Both the position numbers and the translations under genes were made by a program. 64,000 bases of DNA from a virus, in IMG/VR virus record IMGVR_UViG_3300037155_000096; one strand, written 5' to 3'. Below the pieces are notes generated by a model, which did not search any database, was not told the DNA's origin, and was given only the letters and a program-made list of their open reading frames with translations. Positions 30,823-55,164 of this stretch are shown in pieces (within the stretch, counting starts at the first letter, position 1; the number at the start of each line of letters is the position of its first letter).

Positions 30823-30823
30823 G

Positions 30824-31153: not shown

Positions 31154-31162
31154 AACTTCTCC

Positions 31163-31654: not shown

Positions 31655-32822
31655 CGCCCACCTTTAAGTTCTGAAGTTCCACATAAGTTAAATCGTTCAT
31701 AAGGAACGGATGCTCCTTCGTAGCTCTCACTACAGAGCCATCTTCCATCGTGATTTTATAAACAGGGACATTAACTCCTGTCCGCTGAGCTGAATGCCCT
31801 TTACCCAGAACGCCCTGACCCGTGGCTGGATCTACCGATACGGTCCTAAAATTCTCAACGCCGACTAAATCTTTAATAGCAATTATGCCCTTCAGCGGGA
31901 TCTTAATCGGAGTGTCGCCAGTTAAGCAATATTCTCTTACGAATACGTTGGGATCTTCTCTTGCCTCAGCAATTCTTCTTTCAGTAAAATCGGTCGTGGT
32001 TCTTTTGGATGAAACCAGAAACAATTTCCCTGGCATTTTTCCAAACTTGTTAAACCGGGACTTGATTCTACGACTTACCTGAGCATATAGTAACTCTGCA
32101 TTATCTACATGACCATGACGGGCATGTGAAGCCTTCATTTCCTTGCTCATAGCTCCCAAGAAGTTCGACTCATCCATGATTGCACCGATTGCGTTACTTC
32201 CTATACCTGCATTTGCCGTACTGGAAGCTGGAGTCGCCCATACGTTATTCGGGAATCTTATTTCCTTCTGAGTCAGTTTCGGTTTGAACTTCTCATTGAA
32301 ATACGGACTCATCGTGAGCATACCCTGAAGATCTTCGAAGATTACTTTACGAGCAGTCTGCTCTGACAATGAAATCGCCAGGAATGCTATCAGGGAATCA
32401 GGAGCCAATCCAAAAGACTTCTGCGGATTGCGTAAACAGCTCATCTCATAGAACACTCTGCAGGCAGCTATTTTAGCCATGTAGGTCTTGCCCCAGCCGA
32501 GTGAACCAGTTAAAATAACTTCATAATACTCTCCATTGAAGAGTTCTATCATGTCGTCAATTAGCTTCGGCCATAGATTATGCACCTTCCCGAAGTGGTA
32601 CGGATCTGTCAACCATGTTTCGATATCCACCATAGGTTCTTGGAACTCTAATTCGTTCATTAGTTCAAGTAACCCAGTTTTACCGCCGGTCATTTCAGCC
32701 ATAATAAGTTGCATCACTTCCATCTCTTCAGGTGAAAGTGACCTTACATCCCTCTTTAGAAGTTTCTGTACCTCCTCCGGAGTCTGTTTACTTATATTAC
32801 GACCATCAATGAGTTCTATCAT
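31635..32822 (-). CDS. terL: Terminase large subunit, N-terminal precursor (ATPase + IntN)
   Basis: Walker A TGSLGWGKT, Walker B IMDE, coupling motif LVSS; last 97 aa are intein blocks A/B. Confidence 0.9.
   Translation of the reverse strand: MIELIDGRNISKQTPEEVQKLLKRDVRSLSPEEMEVMQLIMAEMTGGKTGLLELMNELEFQEPMVDIETWLTDPYHFGKVHNLWPKLIDDMIELFNGEYYEVILTGSLGWGKTYMAKIAACRVFYEMSCLRNPQKSFGLAPDSLIAFLAISLSEQTARKVIFEDLQGMLTMSPYFNEKFKPKLTQKEIRFPNNVWATPASSTANAGIGSNAIGAIMDESNFLGAMSKEMKASHARHGHVDNAELLYAQVSRRIKSRFNKFGKMPGKLFLVSSKRTTTDFTERRIAEAREDPNVFVREYCLTGDTPIKIPLKGIIAIKDLVGVENFRTVSVDPATGQGVLGKGHSAQRTGVNVPVYKITMEDGSVVRATKEHPFLMNDLTYVELQNLKVGDELFSF
31638..31928 (-). mobile_element. Split intein N-fragment (IntN, 97 aa)
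   Basis: Y|CLTGDT block A; RATKEHPFL block B (TxxH); LKVGDEL end, then TAA. Confidence 0.92.
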
Positions 32823-33040: not shown

Positions 33041-33804
33041 TTCAGTAACACCATTTTGATTGCTGCCGTATGCTGATTTCCGTTTGCCCGCTTGGTCGTC
33101 ATTGCGAGGATATACACGCCGGCGTACCGACCGCGCCATTTGACCTCGTAACTGCCCTGTGTGCGCATTTCATCTGGGAATGACTCTATCTTACTCCCGA
33201 TGACATTATAGACCGTCAGTCTTACCTTACAGTCATAGGGGAGCGAATATCTGATCGTCGTCTCTTGATTAAATGGATTCGGGTAGTTCGACACGGTAAA
33301 TTCCTTGGGTAACATTGACACCACGATAATATTCGAATGCACCGAGCCACCATCGTTGTCCACCTGATTCAGGCGATAAGCAATAACCCCTGCCATGGAG
33401 AGCTTATCTGAGAACATATACTCTTTACCCTTATTGCTATTCCCTTGGGCCGCCACGAAGCCGATCTTCTCCCAGGGACTGCCCATCCAAAGTTTTCTTT
33501 CTATCTCAAATCCATGAAAATTTACTTCCGTCGCTGTCACCCACACAAGCTCAACGTAATTGTCTCTTAAAGTTTTCCCCTTAAAAGAGATCAGTTGCAC
33601 TGGTAGCGGCTCCTGATACTGATAAGCTCCAAGATCCGGATGATTATAAGGCACTGGATTTCCCAGTATATCCGTCTTAATCCGTTGTCCATTTACCTTT
33701 ACGGTATCGCCAGCACCTCTACATGGGCTATTCCACTGAAGCTGCTGCGAAAACATCTGGCACGACAAAACAACTATTAGCCATATCCATATCATCCTTT
33801 TCAT
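33037..33804 (-). CDS. T9SS (Por) C-terminal sorting-domain-containing protein, passenger-less
   Basis: Signal peptide; PDLGAYQY; PLPVQLISF; TATEVNFHGFEIER; YRLNQVDNDG; NYPNPFN.ETTIRYSLP; LTVYNVIG; GVY; KMVLLK end. Confidence 0.85.
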   Translation of the reverse strand: MKRMIWIWLIVVLSCQMFSQQLQWNSPCRGAGDTVKVNGQRIKTDILGNPVPYNHPDLGAYQYQEPLPVQLISFKGKTLRDNYVELVWVTATEVNFHGFEIERKLWMGSPWEKIGFVAAQGNSNKGKEYMFSDKLSMAGVIAYRLNQVDNDGGSVHSNIIVVSMLPKEFTVSNYPNPFNQETTIRYSLPYDCKVRLTVYNVIGSKIESFPDEMRTQGSYEVKWRGRYAGVYILAMTTKRANGNQHTAAIKMVLLK

Positions 33805-34583
33805 ACGCCTACGTTCTCCAATACTTCTTCATTCTTTTCTGTTACTTGCAATTCTATCATCGCCGGCTTTTCTTCTGCCTGGACTTCCGCAAGAAGACCT
33901 GCCACATCCCCAGCCCTTATGGACTTGAATAAACTCTCAGCCACTCCTAATACCTTGGAAACTGCTCTTGGATCGTTAAGCACTTTGGCTACCGAGTCTT
34001 TCCCATACTTCAAACCGAAATCGGTTATTAACTTTTTTCTTACTGCCGCTTCTTCACCCGGATTACCCTTGTTCACTCCCAGATCTCCCATTATCGCAGC
34101 AAGATCTCTTAACAGAGCTGCGGCTATCGCAATTTCATTTCCTGTTGTCTTAAACAACTTGTTTAATTTCTTTTCTGTACCGACATCAATATTGATACGC
34201 CCCTTCTGGATCGCATAAAGCTCCTGCATCTCAGCCATGATATCCAGACCTGCATCAATCTTCTCTTTTGCCTTGATTACTTCAGCCGGCATACGAATAG
34301 CCACCGTCTCCAGTGGCGTCAATGCTTTTCTGAACGAATTCAGGTGATCGATTAACTCTCCCTTAGCCATGCCCAGACCTGCATATTCCGCCGGGTAAGT
34401 AGTCTCGATGTAGTCAGCCACTCTTGTTGACGGCCAGCCCGCCTGTATTCTGGCTTTCAGCTCGGGGAAACACGTCAAAGTTTCCAGGGACGCCTGATGG
34501 CTCTCCGGTTTCTTCGCAGACGGTCTCCTGAACACTCCGTTAAAACTTGGCAATCCACTGCCTTCTGGGTTAATCTTTACCAT
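33801..34583 (-). CDS. Hypothetical helical protein, candidate terminase small subunit
   Basis: N-terminal HTH-like segment and helical middle, upstream of terL; positional inference only. Confidence 0.35.
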   Translation of the reverse strand: MVKINPEGSGLPSFNGVFRRPSAKKPESHQASLETLTCFPELKARIQAGWPSTRVADYIETTYPAEYAGLGMAKGELIDHLNSFRKALTPLETVAIRMPAEVIKAKEKIDAGLDIMAEMQELYAIQKGRINIDVGTEKKLNKLFKTTGNEIAIAAALLRDLAAIMGDLGVNKGNPGEEAAVRKKLITDFGLKYGKDSVAKVLNDPRAVSKVLGVAESLFKSIRAGDVAGLLAEVQAEEKPAMIELQVTEKNEEVLENVGV

Positions 34584-34951: not shown

Positions 34952-37537
34952 TTATTTTTTCAATACGTTATTCATTATCTCGGATTTGTATTTCATAATC
35001 GCACCCTCAAAACCCACGTCCATCATGTTCCTCAAATTCAGCCTGATGGCTTCTTTGATATTCGGTCTTGTGCCGGTCGGACAGAAGGAATCCAGCATCC
35101 CATCTTCGTTGTCGCTGAACTCTGTCAACATTCCAATTATCTCGGGTTCGTAGTTGACGCCGACTTCACCATAAGTTCTGTAATCGAACGCAGGCATGAA
35201 TACTCTTTCAACCCAGCTATAACAGCGTTCATCTTTTGCATACTTCTTGGGGGGATCAAGCGCCAGTTCCCTTATCATAAATGACAGGATCGGTTTGCGG
35301 TCCATGAATCCGAAAGCCAAGTCGTTATCGAGGGCAATCAGTTTACCACTGTCTTTAATTATTCCTACGTTGTCAGTGAACCTGTCCTGCTGATAGGACA
35401 TGAAGTCCGCTACTACCAGCCTTTTTATGTCATCGCCGGAGATCTTCTGGATTATCGCCATTGCTGCGTCCTGCCCCTTAGCCTTTGGCTTGGCCAAATC
35501 CTGACATACGATGAAGCTCGGTAAGAATTCAGCCATCTCAGCATCGAATATCTGGTTCTGTTTCTTTTCGTTTCTAACTTCCACGCCCTTGACATTTAAC
35601 TCCCCTCCGCTAAGCTTGATCTGCTTGACCATCGGAGTGCCTACGCCGACTCTATTAAAGAAATCAGCTGTGCTTTGACTTATCGGACCGGTTTCAGTCT
35701 GACTGTGATGTCTTATCTTAAAAAAGAAATCTGTTCCGCCTAATTCAGCTTTGAACGTTGTATTCGCCCCACCGTTGACAATCTTGATTTTCTCAAAGCT
35801 GCCGGCTCCATCGGTACAAACCAGTTCGGCTGCTTTTGCAAATTTTAATTGTTCATCCAGAGGAATATCCATCTTGACGCCCGCCTTCATAACATCCAGA
35901 GTCGCCGCTGTAACTATTTTATCAGCATCCACCGAACCATCTTTTACGGAGGAAATCAACCCGAGGAAATTCACCTTGAATTCTTTACCGTTGATATCTC
36001 CCTTAGCGTCCGCTTCTTCCTCCTTCTGCATCTGGTCTGTTAGGAACTGTGTGAACAAGTCCTCTGTTTTGAACGGAGAGACCTTGATGGCTTCATTTAA
36101 TATGCGCTGCACACTGTTTTCAGCCAGAGTGGGATTCATCTCCTTCAATTTGGCTGAATAAAGTATCTTCATAAATTTGATTTTCTGGATCGGCATTACT
36201 GTCGGCGTGACTCTCAAAGGCAGATTGTAATTCTTCAGGAAATCCGTAAGCTGTTTTACCGGATAAAGCAGTTCGACTGTCTTCGTAACCCACGTATTAT
36301 AGAGAGCAGGATTATCTGCGAGTAACTCAGTGAAGTATCTGGTCGCTGAACCTAACGGGATCTCAAGGAACGCCAGCCACCCATATCTGGACTGGTTGAA
36401 GGATGTTTCCTTCAGGTAGTTAATCATCTTGTCCTGGATAACTCTTGGGAACATCTTTCCCCAGTACAGAGCTATTGCATAAAACAAAACACCCCTATTT
36501 TTATCTCCCTTCAGACCTGAGAAATCGAATTTTTCAAACTTCTCCTGATGCGCTGCTATTACCTTCTCGGCATGAGCATTGTCGCTGACCAGATCCAAAG
36601 CTGTCATCTCTTTGTTTTTCTTGGACAATGCGAAATAAGTATTCTTATCCCCCTTGAAATACAGTGGTACGTCCTCTGCGCTCCATAACGAGTTAATCTG
36701 GTCTGCCAGTGTTTTGTCAGATATTCCCCGTGACATTACATTTTTACCTGGTGTCACCGGAACTTCATCTTTCGGATCCACTATGTCCAGAGCCGTATCG
36801 ATAACATCGCCGAAATATGGCTTGTAAACGTCCTTCCTTAGTTGCTCCCACTTGTCTTTGAACCCAGTATACCGGCTCGTACCCTGTGTGGATTCATCTG
36901 AGGCATTGTTAATCGCGAGGTAAGCTGACGAATTGGCAATATCGTAGAACGTGAACGTATTCGGATCTCCTATAAACCCCTTTTTCTTAGCTTTCAGTAC
37001 GAATAATCTGTGTTCGAAGCCAAATCTCCCCATTCTTCTATCCAAGCCGCCCACTGTCCGGAGCATTTGCTTGGTGGTCGTTATCCACGTGCCGTAACTC
37101 TTGCCTGAAACCCTCAACTGGACTCCATTCATCTCGATAACTTTGCCCCTGACATTGACGTTCTGGGTAAAACAATGAATTCCCGTTGCCAGGAATGCGT
37201 CCATGTACTTCTTGAAGACAGGACTCTTAATCTTTATATAATCATCATTTAGCAGGAATCCGAAGTCATACAACTTTAATACATTCAGGACTCGATTTGA
37301 ATTGGCTGATACGCCACCGTTTTTCTCCGCGAATTGCACTACGGCATTCGGGAATCTTTTCTTGAACTCCTCAAGGAGAGCATATTTCTCTTTGTTACCG
37401 GAAGCATCTTCCACCACTATGATTTTGTCGCAACTGTTGACATCCGCGCATGCCGCCAGCGTGTCCATGAATTCCTTAAATACTGCCGGTCTGCTCCACG
37501 TAATAATGCCTATAGCCCACTTCAACCCTCTATACAT
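34952..37537 (-). CDS. GT2 (GT-A) glycosyltransferase fused to PI3/4-kinase/HipA-like kinase domain
   Basis: N-terminal IGIITWSRP, IIVVEDAS, GGVSANSN, LLNDD. C-terminal GGANTT..FFFK, DRFTDN and ALDNDLAFG. Confidence 0.75.
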   Translation of the reverse strand: MYRGLKWAIGIITWSRPAVFKEFMDTLAACADVNSCDKIIVVEDASGNKEKYALLEEFKKRFPNAVVQFAEKNGGVSANSNRVLNVLKLYDFGFLLNDDYIKIKSPVFKKYMDAFLATGIHCFTQNVNVRGKVIEMNGVQLRVSGKSYGTWITTTKQMLRTVGGLDRRMGRFGFEHRLFVLKAKKKGFIGDPNTFTFYDIANSSAYLAINNASDESTQGTSRYTGFKDKWEQLRKDVYKPYFGDVIDTALDIVDPKDEVPVTPGKNVMSRGISDKTLADQINSLWSAEDVPLYFKGDKNTYFALSKKNKEMTALDLVSDNAHAEKVIAAHQEKFEKFDFSGLKGDKNRGVLFYAIALYWGKMFPRVIQDKMINYLKETSFNQSRYGWLAFLEIPLGSATRYFTELLADNPALYNTWVTKTVELLYPVKQLTDFLKNYNLPLRVTPTVMPIQKIKFMKILYSAKLKEMNPTLAENSVQRILNEAIKVSPFKTEDLFTQFLTDQMQKEEEADAKGDINGKEFKVNFLGLISSVKDGSVDADKIVTAATLDVMKAGVKMDIPLDEQLKFAKAAELVCTDGAGSFEKIKIVNGGANTTFKAELGGTDFFFKIRHHSQTETGPISQSTADFFNRVGVGTPMVKQIKLSGGELNVKGVEVRNEKKQNQIFDAEMAEFLPSFIVCQDLAKPKAKGQDAAMAIIQKISGDDIKRLVVADFMSYQQDRFTDNVGIIKDSGKLIALDNDLAFGFMDRKPILSFMIRELALDPPKKYAKDERCYSWVERVFMPAFDYRTYGEVGVNYEPEIIGMLTEFSDNEDGMLDSFCPTGTRPNIKEAIRLNLRNMMDVGFEGAIMKYKSEIMNNVLKK

Positions 37538-37582: not shown

Positions 37583-38332
37583 CTAGCTATTGCCGGCTGC
37601 CTTCTGCAATACTTCTAATAATTTTCCGTTCAACTGCGCTGGATCTTCGTTGATCTGCATCTCATCAAAAAACTTGAATACTTTCTTGTCCACATCCATG
37701 AAAAACATCTTGCTCCCCTCGAAATCGAATATCATGTAGCCACGGCTATTCAGGGTTTCCCCGTTCTCTGAAAATATCCCATTCAGGATGCGACTTAAAT
37801 TCTCTATGGACTTATCTTCGCCAGCTTCTTCCCATGCCTTGTCAATTTGCTCTTCCGTGAAGCCGTTATCTTTTAATTCTCTCTTAATAGCCTTGGTTAC
37901 CGCCTCCCATTCAGTCTCATCAGTGAATCCGAAGAGGTCCTGTAACGATTCTTCTCCGTACTTCTCAGCCATTTCCTCATATAAGATTCGGAATTTGTCA
38001 GGATCTAATTCTCCCGACAGCATGTTAAGTTTCACTGTCAAGAATTTTTGTACGTCCTCTGACTTGAACTGAGCATCTGCCAGCACCACGCAGGGAAGTT
38101 CATGAAAACCCAGTTTCAGGGCGGCTTTATATCGGTGTGCTCCGCCTATAATCCTGAATTTCCCATTATCCAACGGTACGACCTGTATGGCTGCAATAAA
38201 TCCGGATGTCTGTATTTCTTTAAGTAATCTCTCGAATGCCTTGCCATCCATGGAATTCGGATTAAATTCGTTCTCCTCTATCTGTGTTATCGCTACAAAT
38301 CGTATATCGTGGTCAATCATATTATCCTGCAA
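37583..38332 (-). CDS. ParB/Srx-like N-terminal domain protein, paralog 2
   Basis: IEENEFNPNSM, AIQVVPL.NG.FRIIGGAHRYKA; likely true start ATG at 38320. Confidence 0.8.
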   Translation of the reverse strand: MQDNMIDHDIRFVAITQIEENEFNPNSMDGKAFERLLKEIQTSGFIAAIQVVPLDNGKFRIIGGAHRYKAALKLGFHELPCVVLADAQFKSEDVQKFLTVKLNMLSGELDPDKFRILYEEMAEKYGEESLQDLFGFTDETEWEAVTKAIKRELKDNGFTEEQIDKAWEEAGEDKSIENLSRILNGIFSENGETLNSRGYMIFDFEGSKMFFMDVDKKVFKFFDEMQINEDPAQLNGKLLEVLQKAAGNS

Positions 38333-38340
38333 TCAATTTC
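38328..38340. repeat. 13-bp intergenic motif, copy 3 of 3
   Basis: Reads GAAATTGATTGCA on the coding strand, 7 nt before the ATG at 38320. Confidence 0.6.
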
Positions 38341-38475
38341 GTCGTGTGAATAAATCTATTTGTCAGTATTATCATTGAGGCTTGCAGGTATCAGACCGGT
38401 AAGAACACCGGGAAGGGCTGGCTAAATCAAGAAGACGCAATCCACGGGAATATGCGTCTTTCGAATCTAAGTGCA

Positions 38476-39219
38476 TTACATAGCTTTATCAAGAATTTCA
38501 TCCATCTTGATGTCGGTAGTGTCAGCTATAGACTTTAACTTCTGTAAAGCTCCCCATATTTCATCATCTATGGAGAAGTATACGACCTTACCGCCACCAG
38601 TTCCGAATGCGAGGATCTTATTGAACTTCTCCCCTTTCTCTTTTTTATGGAATATGCTTTCCAATAATTTTGTCATATCATCAAGGGTTCTAAGTTCCTT
38701 CACTGTGTCCTCGAAGTTATCAAGTAACGGTGAACCTGGCGGTAGAAGCTCCTTCATGTTAATCAGTAATTCTTTCTTCATCTGATCCCATTCGTTTTTA
38801 TCGATAAGAGCCATCGAGTCCCGGATAACTTCGTCGGAATGCCGTTTGGCTAGGTCTTCATATAACGCACTGAATTTATCCCGAGTCATTTTACCATGGA
38901 TCAAATTTAATCGGGTTGTCAAAAGTTTCTGGTAGTCAAGATCCTGGAATTTTGGATCATCCAGTATAATCGCTGGTATTTTCTCAAAGCCTAATATTAA
39001 ACAGGCGTTGAACCTATGCGCTCCACCGAGTATTCGGTACCTGCCATTTTCCAAAGGAACTACCTGAATCGGATCCATCATTCCCATGGTTTCAATTTCT
39101 TCTGTTAACTTGTTAAACTTGGCATCACTCATCAAATTTGGATTCCATTCGTTCTCATCTATTAGATCTACGTCCAGCTGAATTATTTTAGTCATGCCGT
39201 CAATTATGTTCTCGCTCAT
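38476..39219 (-). CDS. ParB/Srx-like N-terminal domain protein, paralog 1
   Basis: IDENEWNPNLM, PIQVVPL.NG.YRILGGAHRFNA. Confidence 0.8.
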   Translation of the reverse strand: MSENIIDGMTKIIQLDVDLIDENEWNPNLMSDAKFNKLTEEIETMGMMDPIQVVPLENGRYRILGGAHRFNACLILGFEKIPAIILDDPKFQDLDYQKLLTTRLNLIHGKMTRDKFSALYEDLAKRHSDEVIRDSMALIDKNEWDQMKKELLINMKELLPPGSPLLDNFEDTVKELRTLDDMTKLLESIFHKKEKGEKFNKILAFGTGGGKVVYFSIDDEIWGALQKLKSIADTTDIKMDEILDKAM

Positions 39220-39650
39220 ATTCTTGTCCTATATTTTATAAAAATAAACTGTTTTGTTCTTACTTGGTGCTCGGGCAGATCATTATCTACGAATAGCGGC
39301 GTCGTTATAACCGGCTCTGATAACTTGATATCCAATATTCTTATCGATTGCCCTTCGAAGATTTCATTTAATTCTTCCAGTAATGCCTCGCATACTTCCC
39401 TTATGCAATGAAGGAAGCCGTCCTCACGATGCAAATCGAGCATAGACAGCATTCTGTCTGTTTCCAGCTTGACTCCCATTATTTTAGAGCGGTCTTCAGC
39501 GTGGCATAATCTGCCGAACTTAAACTCCTGGGTAAATTCCCATTCACATAGCCATTGCCATTTAACTTCCTTGCCATGTTCTTTCAGATAATGGAAGAAC
39601 GCATCTCTCAGGGCTATACTTTGCAGCATTTCAATCGGTTCTAATGACAT
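39216..39650 (-). CDS. Hypothetical protein in modification operon
   Basis: 144 aa, translationally coupled on both sides. Confidence 0.55.
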   Translation of the reverse strand: MSLEPIEMLQSIALRDAFFHYLKEHGKEVKWQWLCEWEFTQEFKFGRLCHAEDRSKIMGVKLETDRMLSMLDLHREDGFLHCIREVCEALLEELNEIFEGQSIRILDIKLSEPVITTPLFVDNDLPEHQVRTKQFIFIKYRTRI

Positions 39651-41029
39651 TGGACCTCCAATAATGGTACTTGCGTTACTATTTCTTCTATGTTCTCACC
39701 GCCGATTGTCAGATTAACAGCATCATCTAATTTATAGTCTCCCTTCAGTTTGAATTCTTCTGCCAGCACCGGCTCTATGAATTTTATATCATCCTTGGCA
39801 TCGAACGCCTCGTGTAACTTATCTGTTTCCACTACCGATATTTTGCCGCCCTTCGCTACCATAGTCATCTTTGGTAATTCTCCGTCCTCCGGACTTCCCT
39901 TGAAGAAATTTGTCCTTGCAAAAGTCGGTACCTTGGGGAACTTCATATTCTTTAACGCTTTGTCGATTCTCTCGTAAATCTCAACAAGCTGGGGACTAGT
40001 CGGAGTCGTTCTGGTAATCAGTTCATACTCCACAATGTCCCTGGCTGTTTCGATTACGTTCTTGTTAACTATCCACTCTTTCTCTTCCGGCGTCCCGAGT
40101 ATATCGACCAGATCTGCCGACTCTTCATGCGTGAACTTTGATTTCAGCTTAGCTGTATTTAACGTCTCGATAAAATCTTCCTCCTCGACATATGGCTGAA
40201 CTGGGGGGACTTCTTCAACGTGCGGATTGAACTTGAAGGTTTCCTTCTCCGTTAGGATCAACTTCGCCCGCATTTTTCTAAGGTCGAGCTGTTTATCCTC
40301 TCTTTCGTCCACCTTTTCTGAAACATCGATAACTGGTTCATCTAACACCGGATCTCCCAGTTTATAGTCTTTCAAAGCTTTCGACTTCACAAAGGTTTCA
40401 TCCGGTCTGTAATCTTTTTGGGCTGTGCAAGTGTGACATCTTCTGCATGCCAGCCATTTCTGAGTTCCTTCATCAAACTCCGGACTTTCGCACCAGACCG
40501 TTAGAGACTTGATATTCTCCGGCAGTCCTCTTAGACCTTCGTCCTTCTTACACTTCGACAGCGGGAATACTAATTTGGCATCTCTTTCTTCCTCACATTT
40601 CGAAAATGGTCTGCCAGCCTTGTACCACGCCTCTATCTCGTTCAAGTACGATATAGCATCATCATTCATAACATATCCGATTGCCAGCTCATCGTAGTCT
40701 CCCCTCATAAACTGAAGGGTGAATAACCACGTCGGTAACTGCCAGAATACCACTCCGGAACTCGGATGATGCTCCAAGGATGTCTTTGCCGCCGGACCGA
40801 CATAACGAAAATCCGGGAAAGCATTGAAAAATGGAAGCATCAGTTCGATTGCTGCAAGTTCCATTTTGGTTTTATCGGTATTGTTCATAATCTCCGCATA
40901 GCCCGCCGTTACCTCATAGCCATCCTGAAGGCTCTTATAAATCAGATACGTCGAATCCGCTCCGCCACTCCATAGTACAAATCTTTTACACTTCATCGTT
41001 TCCTCTCTTGAATAATTTGGTTTCCACAT
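39641..41029 (-). CDS. QueC-like PP-loop ATPase with Zn site and long acidic C-terminal extension
   Basis: LWSGGADST PP-loop; FPL...K.E; TVWC...CRRCHTC; likely start ATG 40996 (SD GAGG). Confidence 0.75.
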   Translation of the reverse strand: MWKPNYSREETMKCKRFVLWSGGADSTYLIYKSLQDGYEVTAGYAEIMNNTDKTKMELAAIELMLPFFNAFPDFRYVGPAAKTSLEHHPSSGVVFWQLPTWLFTLQFMRGDYDELAIGYVMNDDAISYLNEIEAWYKAGRPFSKCEEERDAKLVFPLSKCKKDEGLRGLPENIKSLTVWCESPEFDEGTQKWLACRRCHTCTAQKDYRPDETFVKSKALKDYKLGDPVLDEPVIDVSEKVDEREDKQLDLRKMRAKLILTEKETFKFNPHVEEVPPVQPYVEEEDFIETLNTAKLKSKFTHEESADLVDILGTPEEKEWIVNKNVIETARDIVEYELITRTTPTSPQLVEIYERIDKALKNMKFPKVPTFARTNFFKGSPEDGELPKMTMVAKGGKISVVETDKLHEAFDAKDDIKFIEPVLAEEFKLKGDYKLDDAVNLTIGGENIEEIVTQVPLLEVQCH

Positions 41030-42104
41030 CTTTCACAACTTCTAACAATCTGTTCCCCCAGGCATCCGGGTTGTACTGATCTTTTATGTATTTCTTAAAC
41101 GGTTCCATTTTCGCTTTAGCTTCATCGAAATTGTCGATGATCCATTTAATCATTGCGACTGCTTCATTCTCTGTCTTTACTATGAACGGATATCCGGGCA
41201 GTTTCTCATGAACATACTCAGCTTCCCAGAATACTCCCACCATGCCCGCATAAATCATTTCAAGGAACGTAACTCCGCCCGTATGGTAAGCGTAGAAGCA
41301 CAGGAAGATATGCCGGCTTTTTATCTCGCTATAATATTTTTCCCTCTCCGGCTTGTTGTTATACAGCAGGTACGGAAGGTTCTTGAAATCATCAGCTCCG
41401 TATTCGTCTACGATATTCAATACGCCCTTGAAGTTCACGCCCGATTCATACAACTTCTGCATAACGGGCAGCAGCCTATCAGGTCTTACTATAACCGGAT
41501 ACATATGAATCGTTGCCAACTGTATCGTGGGAAATTCTTCTGGGACTGCTTCAGCTTTGTCAATTTCGTCCAGATATATCGGCGCTGGGTGATGAACATA
41601 CCAGTCCTTGCCAAACTTAGCTGGCACTATACCTGCCTTGAGCAAATATTTCTTCTGATTAGCAACTGCCGCCTTACTTCCCATCAGAGTCGGAAATAAC
41701 ATCGAGGGTAACAGAGCCGAATACAATGCCGCCATGCCCGCTACTTCACCCGGACCACCATGTAATCTCAGCATGATCTTCGGAAATACGAAACCCTTCA
41801 CAAACGTATGGTTGTAAAACTCCAGACATGGGAACGGCGAATGGAAATAAAACAGTCTATCATTGTTGACATATTTTGCTAACTGGTTCCATCTCTCCGA
41901 CCATCCGCCTAATGCATAATCTTTCGTGGTGAACACCGTGTTGGTATATTCGACTCCTTCTACCTGCCAGTCCTCATAAGTGCCCGCTATTATCAGCTTA
42001 TACTTAGTCTTCAGGATGTTGGCTTCCAGCTGAGCAAATTTCGATATGCTTGTTACGAGCTGATCTTTCTGTTTGATCGGTACAAATATTATTTCCTTTA
42101 ACAT
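40986..42104 (-). CDS. GT-B (GT4-like) glycosyltransferase 3
   Basis: TGGVTFLEMIYAGMVGV resembles the GT4 ExxG..xLEAMxxG donor motif; paralogous C-terminus with 42814 and 44279 ORFs. Confidence 0.65.
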   Translation of the reverse strand: MLKEIIFVPIKQKDQLVTSISKFAQLEANILKTKYKLIIAGTYEDWQVEGVEYTNTVFTTKDYALGGWSERWNQLAKYVNNDRLFYFHSPFPCLEFYNHTFVKGFVFPKIMLRLHGGPGEVAGMAALYSALLPSMLFPTLMGSKAAVANQKKYLLKAGIVPAKFGKDWYVHHPAPIYLDEIDKAEAVPEEFPTIQLATIHMYPVIVRPDRLLPVMQKLYESGVNFKGVLNIVDEYGADDFKNLPYLLYNNKPEREKYYSEIKSRHIFLCFYAYHTGGVTFLEMIYAGMVGVFWEAEYVHEKLPGYPFIVKTENEAVAMIKWIIDNFDEAKAKMEPFKKYIKDQYNPDAWGNRLLEVVKDVETKLFKRGNDEV

Positions 42105-42829
42105 TTCTCCACCCTTGGTTTTATTATCTGATCTATTAAATCTTTTCTACTTGTTGCGCATCTTCTAACTTCCTTCAGCAAATAAAATGCTTCAGCATAT
42201 TCACATCCAGCTTCATAGCCTCTGTATCGAGCCTGAGTTTCTATACCGGTTTCATTTCTAACGATAAATCTTAGCTGTGAGGCATACGCATCCTTGAACA
42301 GACGCTTCTTCTCCTCGATAGTATCATGTATGTCCACATAATAGTTTGGAGTGAACGCTGTCTCAGCATTATGCCATCTTGAATTTGGTACTTCATAAAG
42401 CAGTATCTGACTTGGTTGCCAGATTCCCATTGGTCTTAATGCCGCAATACCGGCTCTATGCACGACCTGATGGTCCTGATGAAACGATGGCTCGGGGATA
42501 AGCACTATGTCGGGATGGAAGAACTCAATTACACCTTCCAGATCTTTAATGATGCCACTGATGGGAACTGTATCCAACTTCGAGTCGATGTAGTTCAACA
42601 GGACGGGTTTCTCGGTACAAAGCACTTTGCAGGAATTTATAAACTCAGTTCCTCTCGTCCCCCTTGTAACCAGACCGACACCGTTCATTTGAATATCAGA
42701 TAAAGCCACCAGGACACATAATACTTCGTGACCTTCATTCTTCATCCGAAGCAACATCCCGCCAGCTCCCAGCAATTCATCATCTGCATGAGGCGCTAAC
42801 AATAATATTTTCATTACGCCTCCGACCAT
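42098..42829 (-). CDS. PIG-L/LmbE family N-acetylhexosamine deacetylase
   Basis: LAPHADDELLGAGG and FHQDH metal motifs, LYEV, NYYVDI, AEAF; likely start ATG 42814. Confidence 0.9.
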   Translation of the reverse strand: MVGGVMKILLLAPHADDELLGAGGMLLRMKNEGHEVLCVLVALSDIQMNGVGLVTRGTRGTEFINSCKVLCTEKPVLLNYIDSKLDTVPISGIIKDLEGVIEFFHPDIVLIPEPSFHQDHQVVHRAGIAALRPMGIWQPSQILLYEVPNSRWHNAETAFTPNYYVDIHDTIEEKKRLFKDAYASQLRFIVRNETGIETQARYRGYEAGCEYAEAFYLLKEVRRCATSRKDLIDQIIKPRVEKC

Positions 42830-44331
42830 GATTCATAAAACGGATATGGGCTTTTCAGATCATCCCACAGATTGAATTTCCTAGTCAGAATTGCCGGCAC
42901 ATCATATTTTGTGAGCACTACTGGCTTCCCTAAGCGGTTGCGAGGCATATATAACTTCGTATTTACTTCGTCCCAGGAAACTCCTTCATGTCCCTCTACA
43001 AATTTCAGTGAGTCTACCAGCTTGGATTCATCGCAGAAGTGTTCGAACTGATCGTCCGACATTCTCAGGATTGTGTTCTCCCCTTCCGAGATGCCTCTTA
43101 TTAAAGACATGAACTCCGCGCCCTTGACATTAGCATTGTAATACTGGATTACAAATTCCCTGGCGTACTTGGCGTACTCTTCGTAATGCTGGAAAATATC
43201 CTCAATCATCTTGGCAGCTTCATCCATCGAATTGTAAATGAACTTCCATCCATGAGCGCCGAAGGTATCATTAACCCAAGTACAATTAGCCAATAACGGG
43301 ATGCATCCTACAGCCGCCGCTTCTATCGGAGCGGTCGGGGCTGATTCAACGCGGGAATTAAAAATAGCCACTGCAGTCTGGCTCATCTTCTTCAGATAAA
43401 CATCTCTCCTGCATTCGGCTGTGAAATCAAGGATATGAGGAACGCCACTCGGGAATACATCTTTCACTTCATATTCCGACTGGGTTGTTACGATAATCTT
43501 GTCCACCTTACGAAGCATATATAACTTTTCGTAAAGCTCGAAGACCGGTGCTGACTTTTTGAGTTCTCCTATTCGGTAGAAATGTCCGACGCTTCTGCCA
43601 CGGTCGGTGCTTAAAGGACCAACGATGCTATCGATATCTGAAATGCTTAGTCCGTTCTGCCTTACATAACATCTTTCGATCCATTTCCGGTATGTCGCTG
43701 GACTAAGGAACGGTCTTACCAACGTAGTGACATAATCCTTCATCTGCCCATTGGACAGGAAGACATGCCACGTACCCAGATTGACGGCTACAATGGATTC
43801 GGTTTTGATCAGATTCTTTCCCGCCCTGCCCCACTCTTCGACAACACCGGTATCATGTCTGGATATTCCGGGCATTGTTCTGATTGTACTGGAAAAAATC
43901 ATTGAAAGGTCTTGTGCGTACTGCGGACTCACCCCTATAACGGCATCTATCGGAAGCGATAGCTTGCCCTTTCCCTGAACGTCCCCGAACATGGCAACAT
44001 TCTGCTTGTTCCATACGGAGGTCACCAGATTATAGTCGAACGAACCGCCTTCGTCAGGGATAAGAATCCATGACCATCGTGAGCGCTTGTTATCGACATA
44101 TAATCCGGGTTTAATGTCATGGTCTTTCGGTTTGTACCCAAGTATCACGTAGAAATACGAGTCCTGATCAGCCTGATTCAAGCCTACAAGAACCGTCAGT
44201 AGTGACTGAGTTCCCCTTAACCATGCAACCTCTATTATTCCGGGCTTTGTCCCCGCTTCTTTGATAACCTTAATATCGTCATTGGCTTTCGCCAGCAGAA
44301 AGTTCACCAGATACCGCTGTGGTATTTTCAT
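42814..44331 (-). CDS. GT-B (GT4-like) glycosyltransferase 2
   Basis: FNSRVESAPTAPIEAAAVGCIPLL donor-binding motif. Confidence 0.7.
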   Translation of the reverse strand: MKIPQRYLVNFLLAKANDDIKVIKEAGTKPGIIEVAWLRGTQSLLTVLVGLNQADQDSYFYVILGYKPKDHDIKPGLYVDNKRSRWSWILIPDEGGSFDYNLVTSVWNKQNVAMFGDVQGKGKLSLPIDAVIGVSPQYAQDLSMIFSSTIRTMPGISRHDTGVVEEWGRAGKNLIKTESIVAVNLGTWHVFLSNGQMKDYVTTLVRPFLSPATYRKWIERCYVRQNGLSISDIDSIVGPLSTDRGRSVGHFYRIGELKKSAPVFELYEKLYMLRKVDKIIVTTQSEYEVKDVFPSGVPHILDFTAECRRDVYLKKMSQTAVAIFNSRVESAPTAPIEAAAVGCIPLLANCTWVNDTFGAHGWKFIYNSMDEAAKMIEDIFQHYEEYAKYAREFVIQYYNANVKGAEFMSLIRGISEGENTILRMSDDQFEHFCDESKLVDSLKFVEGHEGVSWDEVNTKLYMPRNRLGKPVVLTKYDVPAILTRKFNLWDDLKSPYPFYESWSEA

Positions 44332-45760
44332 TCGTAGCTCTTTTTTTATACATCGGTTGTCTATCCGTCAAGACATCATAATATCCATTCTGTTCTAACG
44401 CATTCGCTATCTCACTTATTCCAACGCTTCTGTGTACTCTGGACGGATTATATCCAGCCAGAATACTCTTACCCATTTCTGAATTTTCTTCAATCACTTT
44501 CATTGCATCAATCAATGTCATTTCATCTTTACCATGCTTAATCATCATTTCAGGTAGCCAACCTCTTGGTTTCCTAGTCGGGACATTGTCCCTGATTATT
44601 TTAGCTGCTGTCCTCGTGGTATTCTCGTAATGGTATCTTTCTTTCACCCATCCCGGCACCCACGCCAATTCTTCCTTAACCTTATCGTAGTTCTCGTAAA
44701 TGTGGCTGAGCATCTGATATGCTTCCAAGAACGTATCGAACTGATAGGGATAATCGTCAGGTAATAAGCCCTTATGCCAATCTTCCCTCTTAAAGACTCC
44801 AATAAGCCCTGCTGCCAGCATTTCCCATACGGAGACGGCAAAGAGTTCATGTGAACTCCAGAAAAGGAAGGCGTGAGCCTTTTCCATTACTCTCAACGCT
44901 TCTTCTCTCGACTCCAGCCGCAGAACCTGGATTGCATCATTCTTAATTAACTCTTCGGTGACGATGCTTCTCATCATAACATCACCCGTCGTAATCTGGA
45001 TATCGATTTTGCGTCCAGCCGCATAAAACTTATTATACAAATCAAGGATCTGATCGACATGCTTACTGCCGGTGAGCCTTCCTCTTAGCATTAACGTGAA
45101 CCTTTCATTTTTCACGATTGTCGCTGGATCGAAGGTTTCATTATATCCGGAGAAAACGAGTGCTGAGTTCTTTATGATTCCTTTTATCAGCGAGGGAGCC
45201 ACGAATGACTTCGCTGTTGTAATGGCCATCCTTCTACACATCGGGCTTTCCAATAAATTATATCCCATCGTTTCTCCCGCACTCTGAAGCATAAGCTCAT
45301 CATCGGATACTTTCGAGACTTCATTCGAATAATTGCTTCGCATGAGCAGTTCGAAATTAAAGAACGCAGGTGGGTATGTTTCGCCGCCGCCTACTAAAAG
45401 GATTCTTTTTACGAATATGGTCTTGATTGCTGATGTGGTTATCACCGCGTCCACCGGGAATTCTCCCAGCACCGGATGAAATCTCTTGAAGGTATCAATC
45501 GGGCAGTTTACTTCTTCCATGTCATATCGACTATACATGGGTACAAAAATGTCATGCACTCTTGGATGCACTGGTTCATATCTGTAAATGAACTTCTTGA
45601 ATTTGTCTTCAAGATTATTAGGCTCAGGAAGCAGTCTGTATATCGAAATATTTTCATCTGCCTCGCATAACGCCCTGCACCAATCACCGCTGATCAGATA
45701 TATACTGTCGGCATTCAGATTATTCGGATAATTGAACACCGGTACGAACAGAATTCTCAT
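44279..45760 (-). CDS. GT-B (GT4-like) glycosyltransferase 1
   Basis: MLRGRLTGSKH and WSSHELFAVSVWEMLAAGLIGVF motifs. Confidence 0.75.
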   Translation of the reverse strand: MRILFVPVFNYPNNLNADSIYLISGDWCRALCEADENISIYRLLPEPNNLEDKFKKFIYRYEPVHPRVHDIFVPMYSRYDMEEVNCPIDTFKRFHPVLGEFPVDAVITTSAIKTIFVKRILLVGGGETYPPAFFNFELLMRSNYSNEVSKVSDDELMLQSAGETMGYNLLESPMCRRMAITTAKSFVAPSLIKGIIKNSALVFSGYNETFDPATIVKNERFTLMLRGRLTGSKHVDQILDLYNKFYAAGRKIDIQITTGDVMMRSIVTEELIKNDAIQVLRLESREEALRVMEKAHAFLFWSSHELFAVSVWEMLAAGLIGVFKREDWHKGLLPDDYPYQFDTFLEAYQMLSHIYENYDKVKEELAWVPGWVKERYHYENTTRTAAKIIRDNVPTRKPRGWLPEMMIKHGKDEMTLIDAMKVIEENSEMGKSILAGYNPSRVHRSVGISEIANALEQNGYYDVLTDRQPMYKKRATNENTTAVSGELSAGESQ

Positions 45761-46911
45761 TCAAAGTCCTTCATTTTTCCTATCGTTTCCCAAATATTGT
45801 CAACTACCTTACCATAAAACTTATTAAACACCCATGTTCTCAGACCTTTCAACGGGACCAGCATCCTTTCATGGAATGCTATTTCAAATTCCTCGAACGG
45901 AATCTCTGGTTTCAATCCTCTGGCGTAAGCTATGAAGCGCATGATAGGATCTCTAAATCCGCCAAAATTAAAATCCTGACTGCATTTCGCTCCTTCCATA
46001 AAGAATAGCAATATCGGCAGGTTCTCCTCATCGATTCCGAAGTAGTTCTTAAACTCGGGCTCTCTTTCTTTTACTTTTTTCTTCCAGATATCCATCGTCT
46101 TTTTTCCATGTGCAGCATGGGTATCGAGCACGGTATAAGGCACTATGTCCTTGAACCATTCTCCGTGAGACGGGGATGTCAGATTATTTTCTATTTCAAC
46201 CGTGAATCCAGCCGCTTCCCTCCTCTGTCTGTCGAGACAATTATAAGGAACGCTTAAAGCCTGACCTTCACCCGCTAATGAATCCTGCTGATATTCGCAG
46301 TATGTCAGAATCCTCTTCAAGTTTTCATCTGTCTGAAATTCAGGGAACTCAGGACGTGAATAATTCGAGAATACCGGCTTATTGAACATCTGAATATGCG
46401 GATGCCGTTCTTTCATAGCTTTTATGTATGGATCTCTTTCAGCATATCTTGTAAATGCCTTCCATGCGTTGTTCGTGAGATCTCCGTCCCTGCATTTCTT
46501 GGACCTGGCTAATTCGCCAATCATCCAAGCCATGTCAGACCAGTTCTTATACGACCTTCCATTCTTACGGAAATCAGCGAACTCCAGAATCAATTCCGGA
46601 TTTGCTCCGCCAATATCCTCTACTAAAATCGTGTGGAGGCGTCTATACATGAACCACGGGTTTTTTATCCATGCTACGAATGCCAATCTTGTGGATCTCT
46701 CAACGTCGCATTGCCTGACCGCCTTCTGCATACCACAATAAGACATCCAGAATGCTGAATCGTTAACTGAGTCCGCTAAATCTTTCATTCTTTTTTTCTC
46801 GTTCTCATGGATGAGCTTTTCAGCTTCCTTTATTTCAAGTTCTTTCAGTTTATCGCTCTTAATCTCTGCCTTTGTTTTCAAAGCTTCATCATTGAATAAA
46901 TTCATCACCAT
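45757..46911 (-). CDS. MgsA/RarA C-terminal-lid-like helical protein (no Walker A)
   Basis: MQKAVRQCD...MYRRLHTILVEDIGGANP and LDTHAAHG motifs. Confidence 0.5.
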   Translation of the reverse strand: MVMNLFNDEALKTKAEIKSDKLKELEIKEAEKLIHENEKKRMKDLADSVNDSAFWMSYCGMQKAVRQCDVERSTRLAFVAWIKNPWFMYRRLHTILVEDIGGANPELILEFADFRKNGRSYKNWSDMAWMIGELARSKKCRDGDLTNNAWKAFTRYAERDPYIKAMKERHPHIQMFNKPVFSNYSRPEFPEFQTDENLKRILTYCEYQQDSLAGEGQALSVPYNCLDRQRREAAGFTVEIENNLTSPSHGEWFKDIVPYTVLDTHAAHGKKTMDIWKKKVKEREPEFKNYFGIDEENLPILLFFMEGAKCSQDFNFGGFRDPIMRFIAYARGLKPEIPFEEFEIAFHERMLVPLKGLRTWVFNKFYGKVVDNIWETIGKMKDFE

Positions 46912-46990
46912 ATTATCAGTTGTCCAACTTTATGTTAAATAGAGTGTTATGGTTAGGACATGCAAAATGCATGCCCGTCCCATATTTTAA

Positions 46991-47809
46991 TTATGCAGTA
47001 ACATACTCCTGACCGAACACTACCTGATCTGTTGACTTATCTATTGCAATCAGTTTCATGCCGAGACTGAGTTCAAGCGCCTTCAGTGAGTTCTTGACCA
47101 TACCTGCTTTTATTACAGGATCTGTCGCTACCAGTCCTGCATTATGCGAGAGATAATCGAGAGCCACTAACGAAAGGTTGTTACTCCTTACATCAGAGCC
47201 AGAAACTTCGCCAGCTAGTTTGATTGCGTCTTCAACGTTGTCAGCCTGAGCCTCATATAACTTAAACGAAACCATTCTTGCTGCCTTTTCAGCCGCTTCA
47301 GCTGGAAGCCCTTTCTTTTCAGCAAAGAATTCAGCAGCCTTTTGAGAAACCTCAGTAACAGTCAAGTTAATGCACTGTTTAACCCAGTCATCAACGTTCT
47401 TCGGATCCACTACGCCGACCAGTTCCTTACATTTACTCCAACCAAGTGGTGATATCTTCCTGATTGTTTCTTCATCAGCTACTTCGACTGCGAAATAGTG
47501 ATAAATCTGCATGAGGTACTGGGTTTTCCTTATTCCGTACCCGAGCTTTTCCTCAACGAAACTTCTCCAGTCCGTGAAACCGAATTCCAGATAAATCTTG
47601 TTGTCAAGAATCTTTCTGAACAGGCCACCCATCTCGAAATATGTTTCATCAATCGAGTTTCTCAAATCGAGCAATCTTTCCAGCATTTGCTCGCTGGAAG
47701 CGCTACAACTATCTTCAACTCTTTTTATCAGACCGAAGGAAATACTTTCTCCGGCTACTCTAACCGCTTCTGTGGCGGCACCTTTTTTAGCCATGACTTT
47801 CTCCATCAT
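46991..47809 (-). CDS. Hypothetical DNA-binding protein (DUF3102-like)
   Basis: YFEMG..F..I...YLEFGFTDWRSFVEEKLGY..RKTQYLM..Y, LGWSK pattern. Confidence 0.4.
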   Translation of the reverse strand: MMEKVMAKKGAATEAVRVAGESISFGLIKRVEDSCSASSEQMLERLLDLRNSIDETYFEMGGLFRKILDNKIYLEFGFTDWRSFVEEKLGYGIRKTQYLMQIYHYFAVEVADEETIRKISPLGWSKCKELVGVVDPKNVDDWVKQCINLTVTEVSQKAAEFFAEKKGLPAEAAEKAARMVSFKLYEAQADNVEDAIKLAGEVSGSDVRSNNLSLVALDYLSHNAGLVATDPVIKAGMVKNSLKALELSLGMKLIAIDKSTDQVVFGQEYVTA

Positions 47810-50932: not shown

Positions 50933-52252
50933 TTATAATGCTATTAGAAATTCCATCATTTCCGTTTTGTATAGTTCAAACACATCAGGATTCTTCAGGA
51001 ATATCGTGTCGATATCTTCCTGTTTGCTGCAATGCAAGAACGTATCCTCTTTCCCTGGAACTTCTTTGAGGATCTCATAATTCTTCCCGGTCTTAGCAAT
51101 GAAATTGTACTTGATACATAATTTTCTTAATGCTTCGACTTCATTGACATCGCCTGATCTTAAATATTCATTGTCCCTAATCATCATGGCGTAAGTGCCG
51201 GACATATTCGATGGACATACCTTGGACTTCACCACTCTAAAGTTCATATCAATGGATATCGGTTTATCGGTTTCCTTTTCCATGAGTGTTTTACCATGCC
51301 ACATCTTGACAGATAATGACTTAGCGAAACGCTGAGCCATTCCTCCGGGAACAATATTTGGATCTCCCATTACAAAGCCCACTTTTTGCCTATACTGCTG
51401 TATATACAAAATCGTTACAGGATTGTTGAACGTTCTCAGAGCGTATGTCTGACTGGATACCCACTTCCTCATAGCCAAGTTGACTAATTTGGCAAGCACT
51501 CCCATCGTCGCTTCATCAAATCCCTTTTTAATTTCTGTCATCGGTGTCATGGCTGCAATGGAATCAACGATGATTAAATCGACACTACCGGATCTTATCA
51601 GGGCGTCTACAATCTCCATAGCTTCCTCTCCGCTGACAGGCTGCGAGAGCAGCAAGCTATCTACGTCGCAGAAGTTAGCTGCCCACTTCTTGTCTATGGT
51701 ACCTTCCACGTCGACATACGCGCATAATAGTCCCTGTTTCTGAGCCTGTCCTATTACTCTTAAAGCCATCGATGTTTTCGAACTTGATTCATCTCCCACG
51801 AATTCGGTCAACCTTCCTTTTGGTATTCCGCCAAACGTAGCTATGTCAAATGCCATTACTCCCGAAGGAATCCTTTCCACCTGATACCATGTATCGGATG
51901 AAGCCACCGCCACTATTTTTCTTTCTGATTTGTCGCCTTCCGCAACGAATTTTTTATCAAGAGCCTTCATTACATCTTTCAGACCTAAAATCTTTTTGGC
52001 TATCTCAGCCTTGGTCTTTTTATCAATGATCGGCTCTCTTCCCAATATTTCACCCGTCTCGGTGATTACTCCCTTCTTAATCATTTCTTCAGCTACCACG
52101 CCCTCCGGTTCAATGGATCTTGTTTCCGTCAGTTCAGTAAGAACCTCCTCGATAGCCTTTCCAGCCACTTCCACCGCTACTTCCATAGCCTTAGTCTTCT
52201 CCGACTTAATCACCACTTTCGTTGGTTCTTTAATCTTTTCTACCTTTGCCAT
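50933..52252 (-). CDS. recA: RecA recombinase with ~100-aa charged N-terminal extension
   Basis: GGIPKGRLTEFVGDESSSKT, AYVDVEG, LLLSQP.SGEEA, IIVDSIAAM, PGG.A.RF, KSKVCP. Confidence 0.92.
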   Translation of the reverse strand: MAKVEKIKEPTKVVIKSEKTKAMEVAVEVAGKAIEEVLTELTETRSIEPEGVVAEEMIKKGVITETGEILGREPIIDKKTKAEIAKKILGLKDVMKALDKKFVAEGDKSERKIVAVASSDTWYQVERIPSGVMAFDIATFGGIPKGRLTEFVGDESSSKTSMALRVIGQAQKQGLLCAYVDVEGTIDKKWAANFCDVDSLLLSQPVSGEEAMEIVDALIRSGSVDLIIVDSIAAMTPMTEIKKGFDEATMGVLAKLVNLAMRKWVSSQTYALRTFNNPVTILYIQQYRQKVGFVMGDPNIVPGGMAQRFAKSLSVKMWHGKTLMEKETDKPISIDMNFRVVKSKVCPSNMSGTYAMMIRDNEYLRSGDVNEVEALRKLCIKYNFIAKTGKNYEILKEVPGKEDTFLHCSKQEDIDTIFLKNPDVFELYKTEMMEFLIAL

Positions 52253-52316
52253 ACTTCTCCCAATGTCTTACAAAATGATTTCTGAGCGCAACGCACTCGG
52301 TTGCGCCCTCTCTCAA

Positions 52317-53015: not shown

Positions 53016-53016
53016 C

Positions 53017-54423: not shown

Positions 54424-54450
54424 CTTATCCGCAACACCATTAGTTTGTAG

Positions 54451-54476
54451 AATACAAAGACTCCCCTGCGGGAGCC
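54451..54476 (-). terminator. Putative intrinsic terminator after phage SSB
   Basis: GGCTCCC-GCAG-GGGAGTC hairpin followed by TTTGTATT. Confidence 0.6.
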
Positions 54477-54495
54477 TTCTTGAAAAGGACTCTAA

Positions 54496-55137: not shown

Positions 55138-55164
55138 AACGTTTTCTCCTTTATCAGTTTATGG

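Follow-up and report, generated by a model that had tools for sequence, protein, structure and literature searches.

A glycosyltransferase-ParB operon beside the terminase genes

We analysed 64,000 nucleotides of viral DNA from IMG/VR record IMGVR_UViG_3300037155_000096, hereafter the window, in which positions 37583-46911 hold an operon of glycosyltransferase (GT), de-N-acetylase and ParB-like genes. The phage genes of the window form one long run on the minus strand, and the operon lies exactly between the gene for the single-stranded DNA-binding protein (SSB) and the terminase genes. The original prediction for this DNA had described nine same-strand genes with seven overlap couplings, and its coordinates and overlaps were confirmed: nine tightly packed minus-strand open reading frames (ORFs) are followed by one encoding 861 amino acids (aa). 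From the 5' to the 3' end of the operon, seven junctions overlap by 4, 53, 16, 7, 44, 10 and 4 nt; the last two are gaps of 143 nt and then 45 nt. A scan of viral contigs returned a single contig, 99% identical, in which the gene order is repeated. The order recurs there and, for the core genes, also in relatives (41-58% identity), so that chance can be set aside. No GenBank phage matched the 9.3-kb region in Megablast.

Three enzymes of the GT-B fold had been predicted, and each call was borne out by a different route: a structural model for the 493-aa GT493 (44279-45760), profile comparison for the 505-aa GT505 (42814-44331) and BLASTP homology for the 372-aa GT372 (40986-42104). GT493, a GT4-like retaining enzyme of the conserved core, matches phrog_30253 (4e-41). 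Its AlphaFold2 (AF2) model has the two Rossmann domains of a GT-B fold (pLDDT 86.6), and its Foldseek neighbours are the retaining GT4/GT5 enzymes glycogen synthase, SPS, MshA, BshA and PglA (E 5e-12 to 1e-9). The glutamates of its EX7E motif, E305 and E313, are invariant in 15 sequences. The model also contains a C-terminal winged-helix-like domain (residues ~400-475) with the order H-b-H-H-H-b-b. GT505, a second core paralogue with orthologues in relatives L007, L008, L010 and L011 (BLASTP), aligned with GT493 by hhalign (98.3%, E 1.2e-14); common to the two are the donor-binding half, the EX7E motif (E329/E337 in GT505, again invariant) and the C-terminal tail domain. GT372 is a third, shorter and lineage-specific paralogue, matched by BLASTP to the GT493 orthologue of relative L010 (6e-16) and to gp84 of Arthrobacter phage KellEzio (3e-8). 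In GT372 the motif is H-X7-E, histidine having replaced the first glutamate.

In Pfam, GT493 (22.7 bits) and GT505 (24.0 bits) missed the gathering score of Glycos_transf_1 (26.4 bits), and GT372 had no Pfam match; PF00534 is present in some GT493 orthologues and in KellEzio gp90. Single-sequence PDB searches with the 372-aa, 505-aa, 462-aa and 861-aa proteins of the locus gave no significant match. A likeness of GT505 to uracil-DNA glycosylase in such a search (E 0.11) was gone when the family profile was used.

The first gene of the operon (45757-46911) encodes an all-helical 384-aa core protein that resembles the C-terminal domain of MgsA/RarA. RarA, the source of this MgsA_C domain, is replication-associated. 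The protein had been called MgsA-lid-like, and both profile and model upheld the call. Its family profile matches RarA/MgsA C-terminal fragments in the PDB (E~1e-9), and its AF2 model (pLDDT 94.7) has such fragments as its top matches in Foldseek and VIA, the alignment covering residues 50-237 (VIA Z 6.4-7.7). Residues 1-50 form one long helix, and the AAA+ ATPase module is absent. Q62, K63, R66, E98, D263 and G269 are invariant in the family. Among 1.84 billion representatives, an exhaustive HMMER search brought up no more than 31 relatives, and a word-index homologue search with the 384-aa protein gave 2 matches only. We searched for longer fused forms of the family and found none, which is weak evidence.

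The last two of the nine genes encode proteins with a ParB nucleotide-binding domain (NBD). The ParB fold is a DNA-acting NTP switch. The first protein has 247 aa (38476-39219; Pfam ParB_N 3.6e-11; phrog_26387 1.4e-44) and the second, of the core type, 249 aa (37583-38332; ParB_N 2.4e-9; phrog_26387 4e-52); as translation starts, ATG 38320 is probably the right one for the second rather than TTG 38332. Their ParB_N (PF02195) scores of 43.4 and 37.6 bits exceed the 26.3-bit cut-off, as the predicted assignment requires, and the P-motif GxxR is present as GGAHR. The two are paralogues, 34% identical. The second matched the NBD of Noc in the PDB (3e-9) and is 36-40% identical to the ParBs of phages DLP_5, RHph_TM16 and KellEzio. 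Both window ParBs match phrog_498, a family of ParB-DNA-methyltransferase fusions (5e-15). By sequence profile, Pfam detected neither a helix-turn-helix in the ParBs nor a ParA partner in the proteins scanned.

A 243-aa de-N-acetylase of the PIG-L/LmbE family (42098-42829) is a recurrent accessory of the operon. It too had been predicted and stands well above the Pfam cut-off (PF02585, 3.1e-19, 70.2 bits vs 28.2 bits). Its metal-binding motifs, APHADDE (AHxDD type) and FHQDHQ (HxDH type), are conserved in phage homologues, found in two of seven phage groups (V-YDF132, 2e-30; DLP_5, 1e-16). The nearest PDB relatives are diacetylchitobiose deacetylase (4e-15) and BshB (9e-10). The proposed logic, in which an N-acetylhexosamine (HexNAc) is added and then deacetylated, was supported.

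Conservation of the module and its variable surroundings

GT493 relatives at 41-58% identity were located on metagenomic contigs. A BLAST map of these relatives gave the order RecA … p272–GT493–MgsA_C-like–GT505–(variable genes)–ParB–p260–TerL, TerL being the large terminase subunit. p272 (46991-47809; phrog_17202, 4.9e-29) is a conserved 272-aa protein with BLASTP matches in L007-L011, and in the relatives it is always directly upstream of the GT493 orthologue. The 260-aa p260 (33801-34583; phrog_35167), kept between ParB and TerL in the relatives, is by position the putative small terminase subunit.

Cultured phages carry the same arrangement. A GT gene of 480-530 aa, a ParB gene, a gene of ~200 aa and TerL follow one another in seven of the seven phage groups examined: Stenotrophomonas DLP_5/DLP_3, Rhizobium RHph_TM16, Rhodobacter RcDurkin, Vibrio V-YDF132, Agrobacterium JP1, Arthrobacter KellEzio and the Bacteroidota-type relatives. 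The GT493-family gene is orthologous across all groups (29-58% identity), and the nearest ParB homologues of cultured phages (31-40% identity) all lie within this array. A conserved neighbourhood had been proposed as a check on the original prediction; we found GT493, the MgsA_C-like protein, GT505 and ParB kept in relatives and in six cultured phage groups. Their hosts span three phyla, Pseudomonadota, Actinomycetota and Bacteroidota.

Around this array the content differs from phage to phage. DLP_5 has a PIG-L deacetylase, epimerase, aminotransferase, methyltransferase, GT, ParB, 215-aa protein and TerL, and RHph_TM16 has an MgsA_C-like protein, epimerase, ArnB-like aminotransferase, GT, ParB and TerL. 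V-YDF132 encodes a deacetylase, MgsA_C-like protein, GT, ParB and TerL; KellEzio, a Pfam-positive MgsA_C protein, two GT-B-like genes, ParB and an S-adenosylmethionine (SAM) methyltransferase. RcDurkin and JP1 carry the GT-ParB-(~200 aa)-TerL array. MgsA_C occurs together with GT and ParB genes in KellEzio, DLP_5, RHph_TM16 and V-YDF132. Part of this conservation may be vertical, because the replication blocks of DLP_5 (38053-46574) and of the window (50933-59448) are syntenic, in the order DnaB-like helicase, primase, SF2 helicase, regulator, UvsX-like recombinase, resolvase, exonuclease, despite one phage being a siphovirus and the other having a T4-type capsid.

Further genes were seen beside the module in the cultured phages. 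A small "DprA-like DNA processing" gene is directly upstream of the GT in RcDurkin (6645-7034) and JP1 (983-1399), and pyruvate-phosphate-dikinase-like genes lie downstream of TerL in RHph_TM16 (13079-15190) and V-YDF132 (12529-14573), the latter also with a dCTP deaminase downstream of TerL. Tyrosine-phosphatase-like genes are annotated beside the module in RHph_TM16 and listed in papers on V-YDF132 and DLP3.

The LmbE, GT372, PP-loop, 144-aa, second ParB and GT-A/kinase genes of the window were absent from its closest relatives in the BLAST map; hence we regard them as accessories of this lineage. Pfam scans of the accessory genes of L007, L009, L010 and L011 were mostly blank. The PP-loop ATPase (39641-41029; phrog_1550, 1.7e-21) had been predicted to be QueC-like. 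The PP-loop domain stood: residues 10-203 include an SGGADS motif and a cysteine cluster, followed by an acidic C-terminal region of ~260 aa. The likeness to QueC did not. Pfam QueC scored 19.2 bits, below its 22-bit cut-off, and aligned just residues 17-42; none of the pathway partners FolE, QueD, QueE and DpdA/TGT was among the 40 window proteins scanned against Pfam. We therefore rejected the protein as a true QueC. Homologues in ViI-like and jumbo phages are encoded by stand-alone genes, and the contexts of those in ViI-like and Vibrio phages were uninformative. The neighbouring 144-aa ORF (39216-39650), translationally coupled on both sides, has no Pfam or PHROG match and no counterpart in the closest relatives.

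The 861-aa protein (34952-37537) had been described as a GT2-kinase fusion. Its GT-A (GT2-like) N-terminus held up (phrog_2456, 5.9e-15) and is joined by a helical linker to a putative PI3/4K/HipA-like C-terminal domain. The kinase part is a lead from motifs read by eye, DRFTDN and LDNDLAFG, and from neighbours in a language-model atlas labelled PI3_PI4_kinase (38%) or HipA_2 (21%), with scores of 0.94-0.95; the protein had no Pfam or PDB sequence match.

The intergenic leader of the operon (46912-46990, minus strand) reads GGCATG-N4-TTGCA with sigma54-like -24/-12 spacing, within a short palindrome. The motif is related to, not identical with, TTAGCAYG-N4-TTG, of which the window has exact copies only at 55196 and 63574, neither at the operon. 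Scans for sigma70 promoters and terminators gave background levels. After the first ParB gene, a hairpin (GACGCA…TGCGTC) and then a T-rich run lie within 38333-38475; a separate transcription unit of the second ParB gene and the GT-A/kinase gene is therefore suggested.

Elsewhere the window encodes a T4-type major capsid protein, Gp23 (22069-23466; 1.4e-59), the portal Gp20, a prohead protease, and a replication and recombination block with ligase, DnaB-like helicase, primase, SF2 helicase, RecA/UvsX-like recombinase, Holliday-junction resolvase, Cas4-like exonuclease and SSB. The sorting domain of a type IX secretion system (T9SS) in one gene indicates a Bacteroidota host. The lineage of the window may belong to the "Moraphages", large phages of aquatic habitats whose predicted hosts are Bacteroidota; they group near T4-like phages and have four core glycosyltransferase orthogroups (PMC12619734). 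At 29659-32822 the large terminase is split between two genes with intein halves at the end of one and the start of the other (Pfam Intein_splicing in both) and two small ORFs between them. Relative L009 instead has a TerL gene (1410 aa) with an intein bearing LAGLIDADG/HNH matches. A 265-aa protein encoded between the portal and prohead protease genes (25263-26060) has a hydrophobic N-terminal segment and a C-terminal (VVPA)n repeat.

The target of the glycosyltransferases

What do these enzymes glycosylate? In our best explanation, which we hold with even confidence and doubt, the operon directs ParB-assisted glycosylation (hypermodification) of phage DNA before packaging, and the sugar is then deacetylated to a glucosamine-type residue. 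This reading draws on the GT-ParB-TerL order, the position ahead of the terminase genes, the phrog_498 match, the replication-associated source of the MgsA_C domain and the co-occurrence of that domain with GT and ParB genes in four of the cultured phages. It draws also on the winged-helix-like tail domain common to GT493 and GT505, on the lack of transmembrane (TM)-like segments in the cluster proteins, and on a major capsid protein that has no Ser/Thr-rich acceptor tail (23% Ser+Thr in its last 40 residues, no low complexity). The literature on ParB is a further support: ParB-fold proteins that lack a DNA-binding domain activate phage thymine dioxygenases on double-stranded DNA (dsDNA), and the commonest neighbours of these 5mYOX enzymes are GTs (PMC13229309). 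Phage ParB-DNA-methyltransferase fusions are common (PMC12704722). Finally, the DNA of Stenotrophomonas maltophilia phage DLP3, a carrier of the module, resisted 15 of the 15 restriction enzymes tried (PMC7326821).

We infer the following steps. The core proteins GT493, GT505, the ATPase-less MgsA_C-like protein and ParB-NBD would be expressed beside the terminase genes and would work on phage DNA that has already been replicated. ParB-dependent 5mYOX enzymes and ParB-methyltransferase fusions offer a precedent, on which the ParB-fold proteins would load or hold the transferases on dsDNA; a like contribution may come from the MgsA_C-like protein and perhaps also from the winged-helix-like GT tails. 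The sugar added by GT493 and GT505 would be a mono- or disaccharide containing HexNAc, and its de-N-acetylation by LmbE would expose a free amine. Extension or derivatisation of the glycan may, in this lineage, fall to GT372, the PP-loop ATPase and the GT-A/kinase fusion.

A number of results weigh against a DNA target. Chief among them are negative searches for an enzyme that would make the acceptor. A search with Pfam Tet_JBP (PF12851), run without a positive control, covered the tested window proteins, the 77.8-kb sister contig and six complete carrier genomes (KellEzio, DLP_5, RHph_TM16, RcDurkin, V-YDF132 and JP1) and matched nothing; divergent phage 5mYOXs can escape this model (PMC13229309). 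ThyA (PF00303) likewise had no match in the window proteins tested, the sister contig, KellEzio, DLP_5, RHph_TM16 and RcDurkin. In addition, the genome measures at least ~170 kb, of which 64 kb were in view, and the GT-ParB cluster is no more than a candidate cause of the DLP3 resistance. Moreover, ParB always adjoins the terminase, directly upstream of the putative small and large subunit genes, and so could be a component of the packaging module and not a partner of the GTs.

We considered the conserved neighbours p334 and p116 as hidden dioxygenases and rejected both: p334 is the Cas4-like exonuclease and p116 the Holliday-junction resolvase. In DLP_5 (73334-74634), TerL is directly followed by a Thy1/ThyX-like gene of divergent sequence (E 3e-6) and by a "nucleotide kinase". 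These two might supply a modified pyrimidine nucleotide; the pair was not found elsewhere. Because no enzyme making a 5-hydroxymethyl (5hm) or 5-hydroxy (5ho) pyrimidine was detected, three options are left: a cryptic enzyme that makes the acceptor, a chemistry unlike 5hm/5ho-pyrimidine O-glycosylation, or a target other than DNA.

The last of these options is taken up by the main rival, which we rate as rather unlikely. It proposes an O-linked amino-sugar glycan on capsid, tail or decoration proteins, in the manner of phage Che8, with ParB and the MgsA_C-like protein belonging to packaging or replication modules. Two results count for it and against DNA: the only phage matches of the GT-A domain are cluster-F mycobacteriophage glycosyltransferases, of a kind tied to virion glycosylation, and giant viruses contain structural look-alikes of the MgsA_C-like protein, two of which, in Heterosigma akashiwo virus, are labelled glycosyltransferase. 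The first is tempered by a similarity of just 25% identity (E~1e-6) and by the place of the gene outside the conserved core. The tailoring enzymes of DLP_5 and RHph_TM16 (epimerase, ArnB/WecE-like aminotransferase, methyltransferase, deacetylase) are likewise typical of protein or surface glycans, and one protein of the tail region, of 107 aa (4810-5133), does have a Ser/Thr/Gly/Ala-rich C-terminus, the only such tail found. Against this rival stands the major capsid protein, which has no tail of that kind. Nor does virion glycosylation explain the strict adjacency of GT and ParB in seven groups and the co-occurrence of MgsA_C; even with a virion protein as the target, one would have to account for the linkage to ParB and terminase.

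Could the GT genes instead be a functionally unrelated insertion hotspot upstream of the terminase, the ParBs and the MgsA_C-like protein serving packaging, partition or replication? The constant place of ParB ahead of the terminase genes, the strongly varying accessory content of the cluster among relatives and the report of DLP5 as a persisting phagemid would fit. Random cargo would not be expected to give an orthologous GT493 family in every group, and a hotspot would not keep the same GT family beside the same ParB family in three phyla, so we consider this improbable. Modification of a host glycoconjugate or small molecule seems to us about as improbable. Its products would be lipopolysaccharide (LPS), capsule or peptidoglycan precursors altered for superinfection exclusion, or a glucosamine metabolite in the style of mycothiol or bacillithiol. 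The pairing of GT4 with LmbE does follow the logic of MshA/MshB and BshA/BshB, with MshA and BshA among the structural neighbours of GT493; the authors of DLP3 suggested LPS modification (PMC7326821), and the DLP_5 cluster includes small TM proteins. Yet the operon has no TM segment, flippase, polymerase or lipid-carrier enzyme, its genes sit among late and replication genes of an apparently lytic phage with a T4-like capsid, and the ParB/terminase linkage is kept across Gram-negative, Gram-positive and Bacteroidota hosts with unrelated envelopes.

Glycosylation of DNA, our preferred reading, can be taken a step further, to a proposal that we find unlikely. The trio of GT4-type GT-B, ATPase-less MgsA_C and ParB-NBD could be a widespread machine that glycosylates phage DNA shortly ahead of packaging without a 5-hydroxymethyl or 5-hydroxy pyrimidine precursor, through a new acceptor chemistry (at an exocyclic amine, say, or at the backbone), unless a precursor enzyme exists that is cryptic. 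The adduct here would become a cationic glucosamine, derivatised by the PP-loop enzyme and the kinase.

Were the target DNA, the operon would represent a second class of ParB-assisted hypermodification, one with a basis other than Tet/JBP or ThyA-type enzymes. The stand-alone MgsA_C domain of phages and giant viruses would gain a function, amino-sugar (cationic) adducts would join the known anti-restriction DNA modifications, and the restriction resistance of DLP3 could be explained. The idea is directly testable, as several carriers are cultured, including DLP_5 and DLP_3, the latter proposed as a therapeutic candidate by its authors.

Comparison with known systems

Phage DNA glycosylation, and its link with ParB, is already known. 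The original prediction had not recognised the gene combination as a described system; this has to be qualified, since hypermodification clusters with ParB and GTs have been described (PMC13229309; bioRxiv 10.1101/2023.12.21.572611), but those depend on a 5mYOX or a ThyA homologue, neither of which was detected here. In the literature searched, we found no description of a GT4 GT-B with MgsA_C and ParB beside the terminase, with recurrent LmbE and without detectable 5mYOX or ThyA.

The closest likeness is to the ParB-dependent 5mYOX clusters of O'Toole et al. 2026 (PMC13229309). There, too, a short ParB with an NBD, a C-terminal part and no obvious DNA-binding domain shares its locus with DNA-modifying enzymes and frequently with GTs and terminase, and the model is one of post-replication action on dsDNA. 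Unlike those clusters, the present one has no detected Tet/JBP dioxygenase (window proteins and six complete carrier genomes), its ParB is partnered by a GT4-type GT-B and an MgsA_C-like protein, and it has two ParB paralogues.

The 5-hydroxymethylcytosine (5hmC) GT clusters of Pyle et al. (bioRxiv 10.1101/2023.12.21.572611), like the T4 alpha- and beta-glucosyltransferases, use GT-B or GT-A enzymes related to GTs for LPS, teichoic acid and small molecules. The clusters have several GTs each, HexNAc among the added sugars and ParB-like neighbours. They differ in their need for a C5-methyltransferase with 5mYOX, or for a ThyA-type hydroxymethylase, and their text mentions neither deacetylase nor kinase. 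The difference from the T4 enzymes lies in the nearest structures, here MshA, BshA and glycogen-synthase-type enzymes.

With MshA/MshB and BshA/BshB the operon shares the sequence of a retaining GT4 GT-B and a PIG-L/LmbE zinc deacetylase; it lacks their ligase and cysteine-adding enzymes, belongs to a phage and is tied to ParB and terminase. Phage GT-A and GT genes are also a feature of Che8-type virion glycosylation (Freeman et al. 2023, cited in PMC12619734), and there is the weak GT-A similarity. Here, in contrast, the capsid has no Ser/Thr-rich tail, the core GTs are of another family, and the linkage of ParB and MgsA_C is unaccounted for by such a system. Finally, the MgsA_C-like protein is homologous to RarA/MgsA in the C-terminal lid and tetramerisation region. 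In place of an AAA+ module it has a long N-terminal helix, with ~150 extra helical residues at the C-terminus, and it is found in phages, beside GT genes, and in giant viruses.

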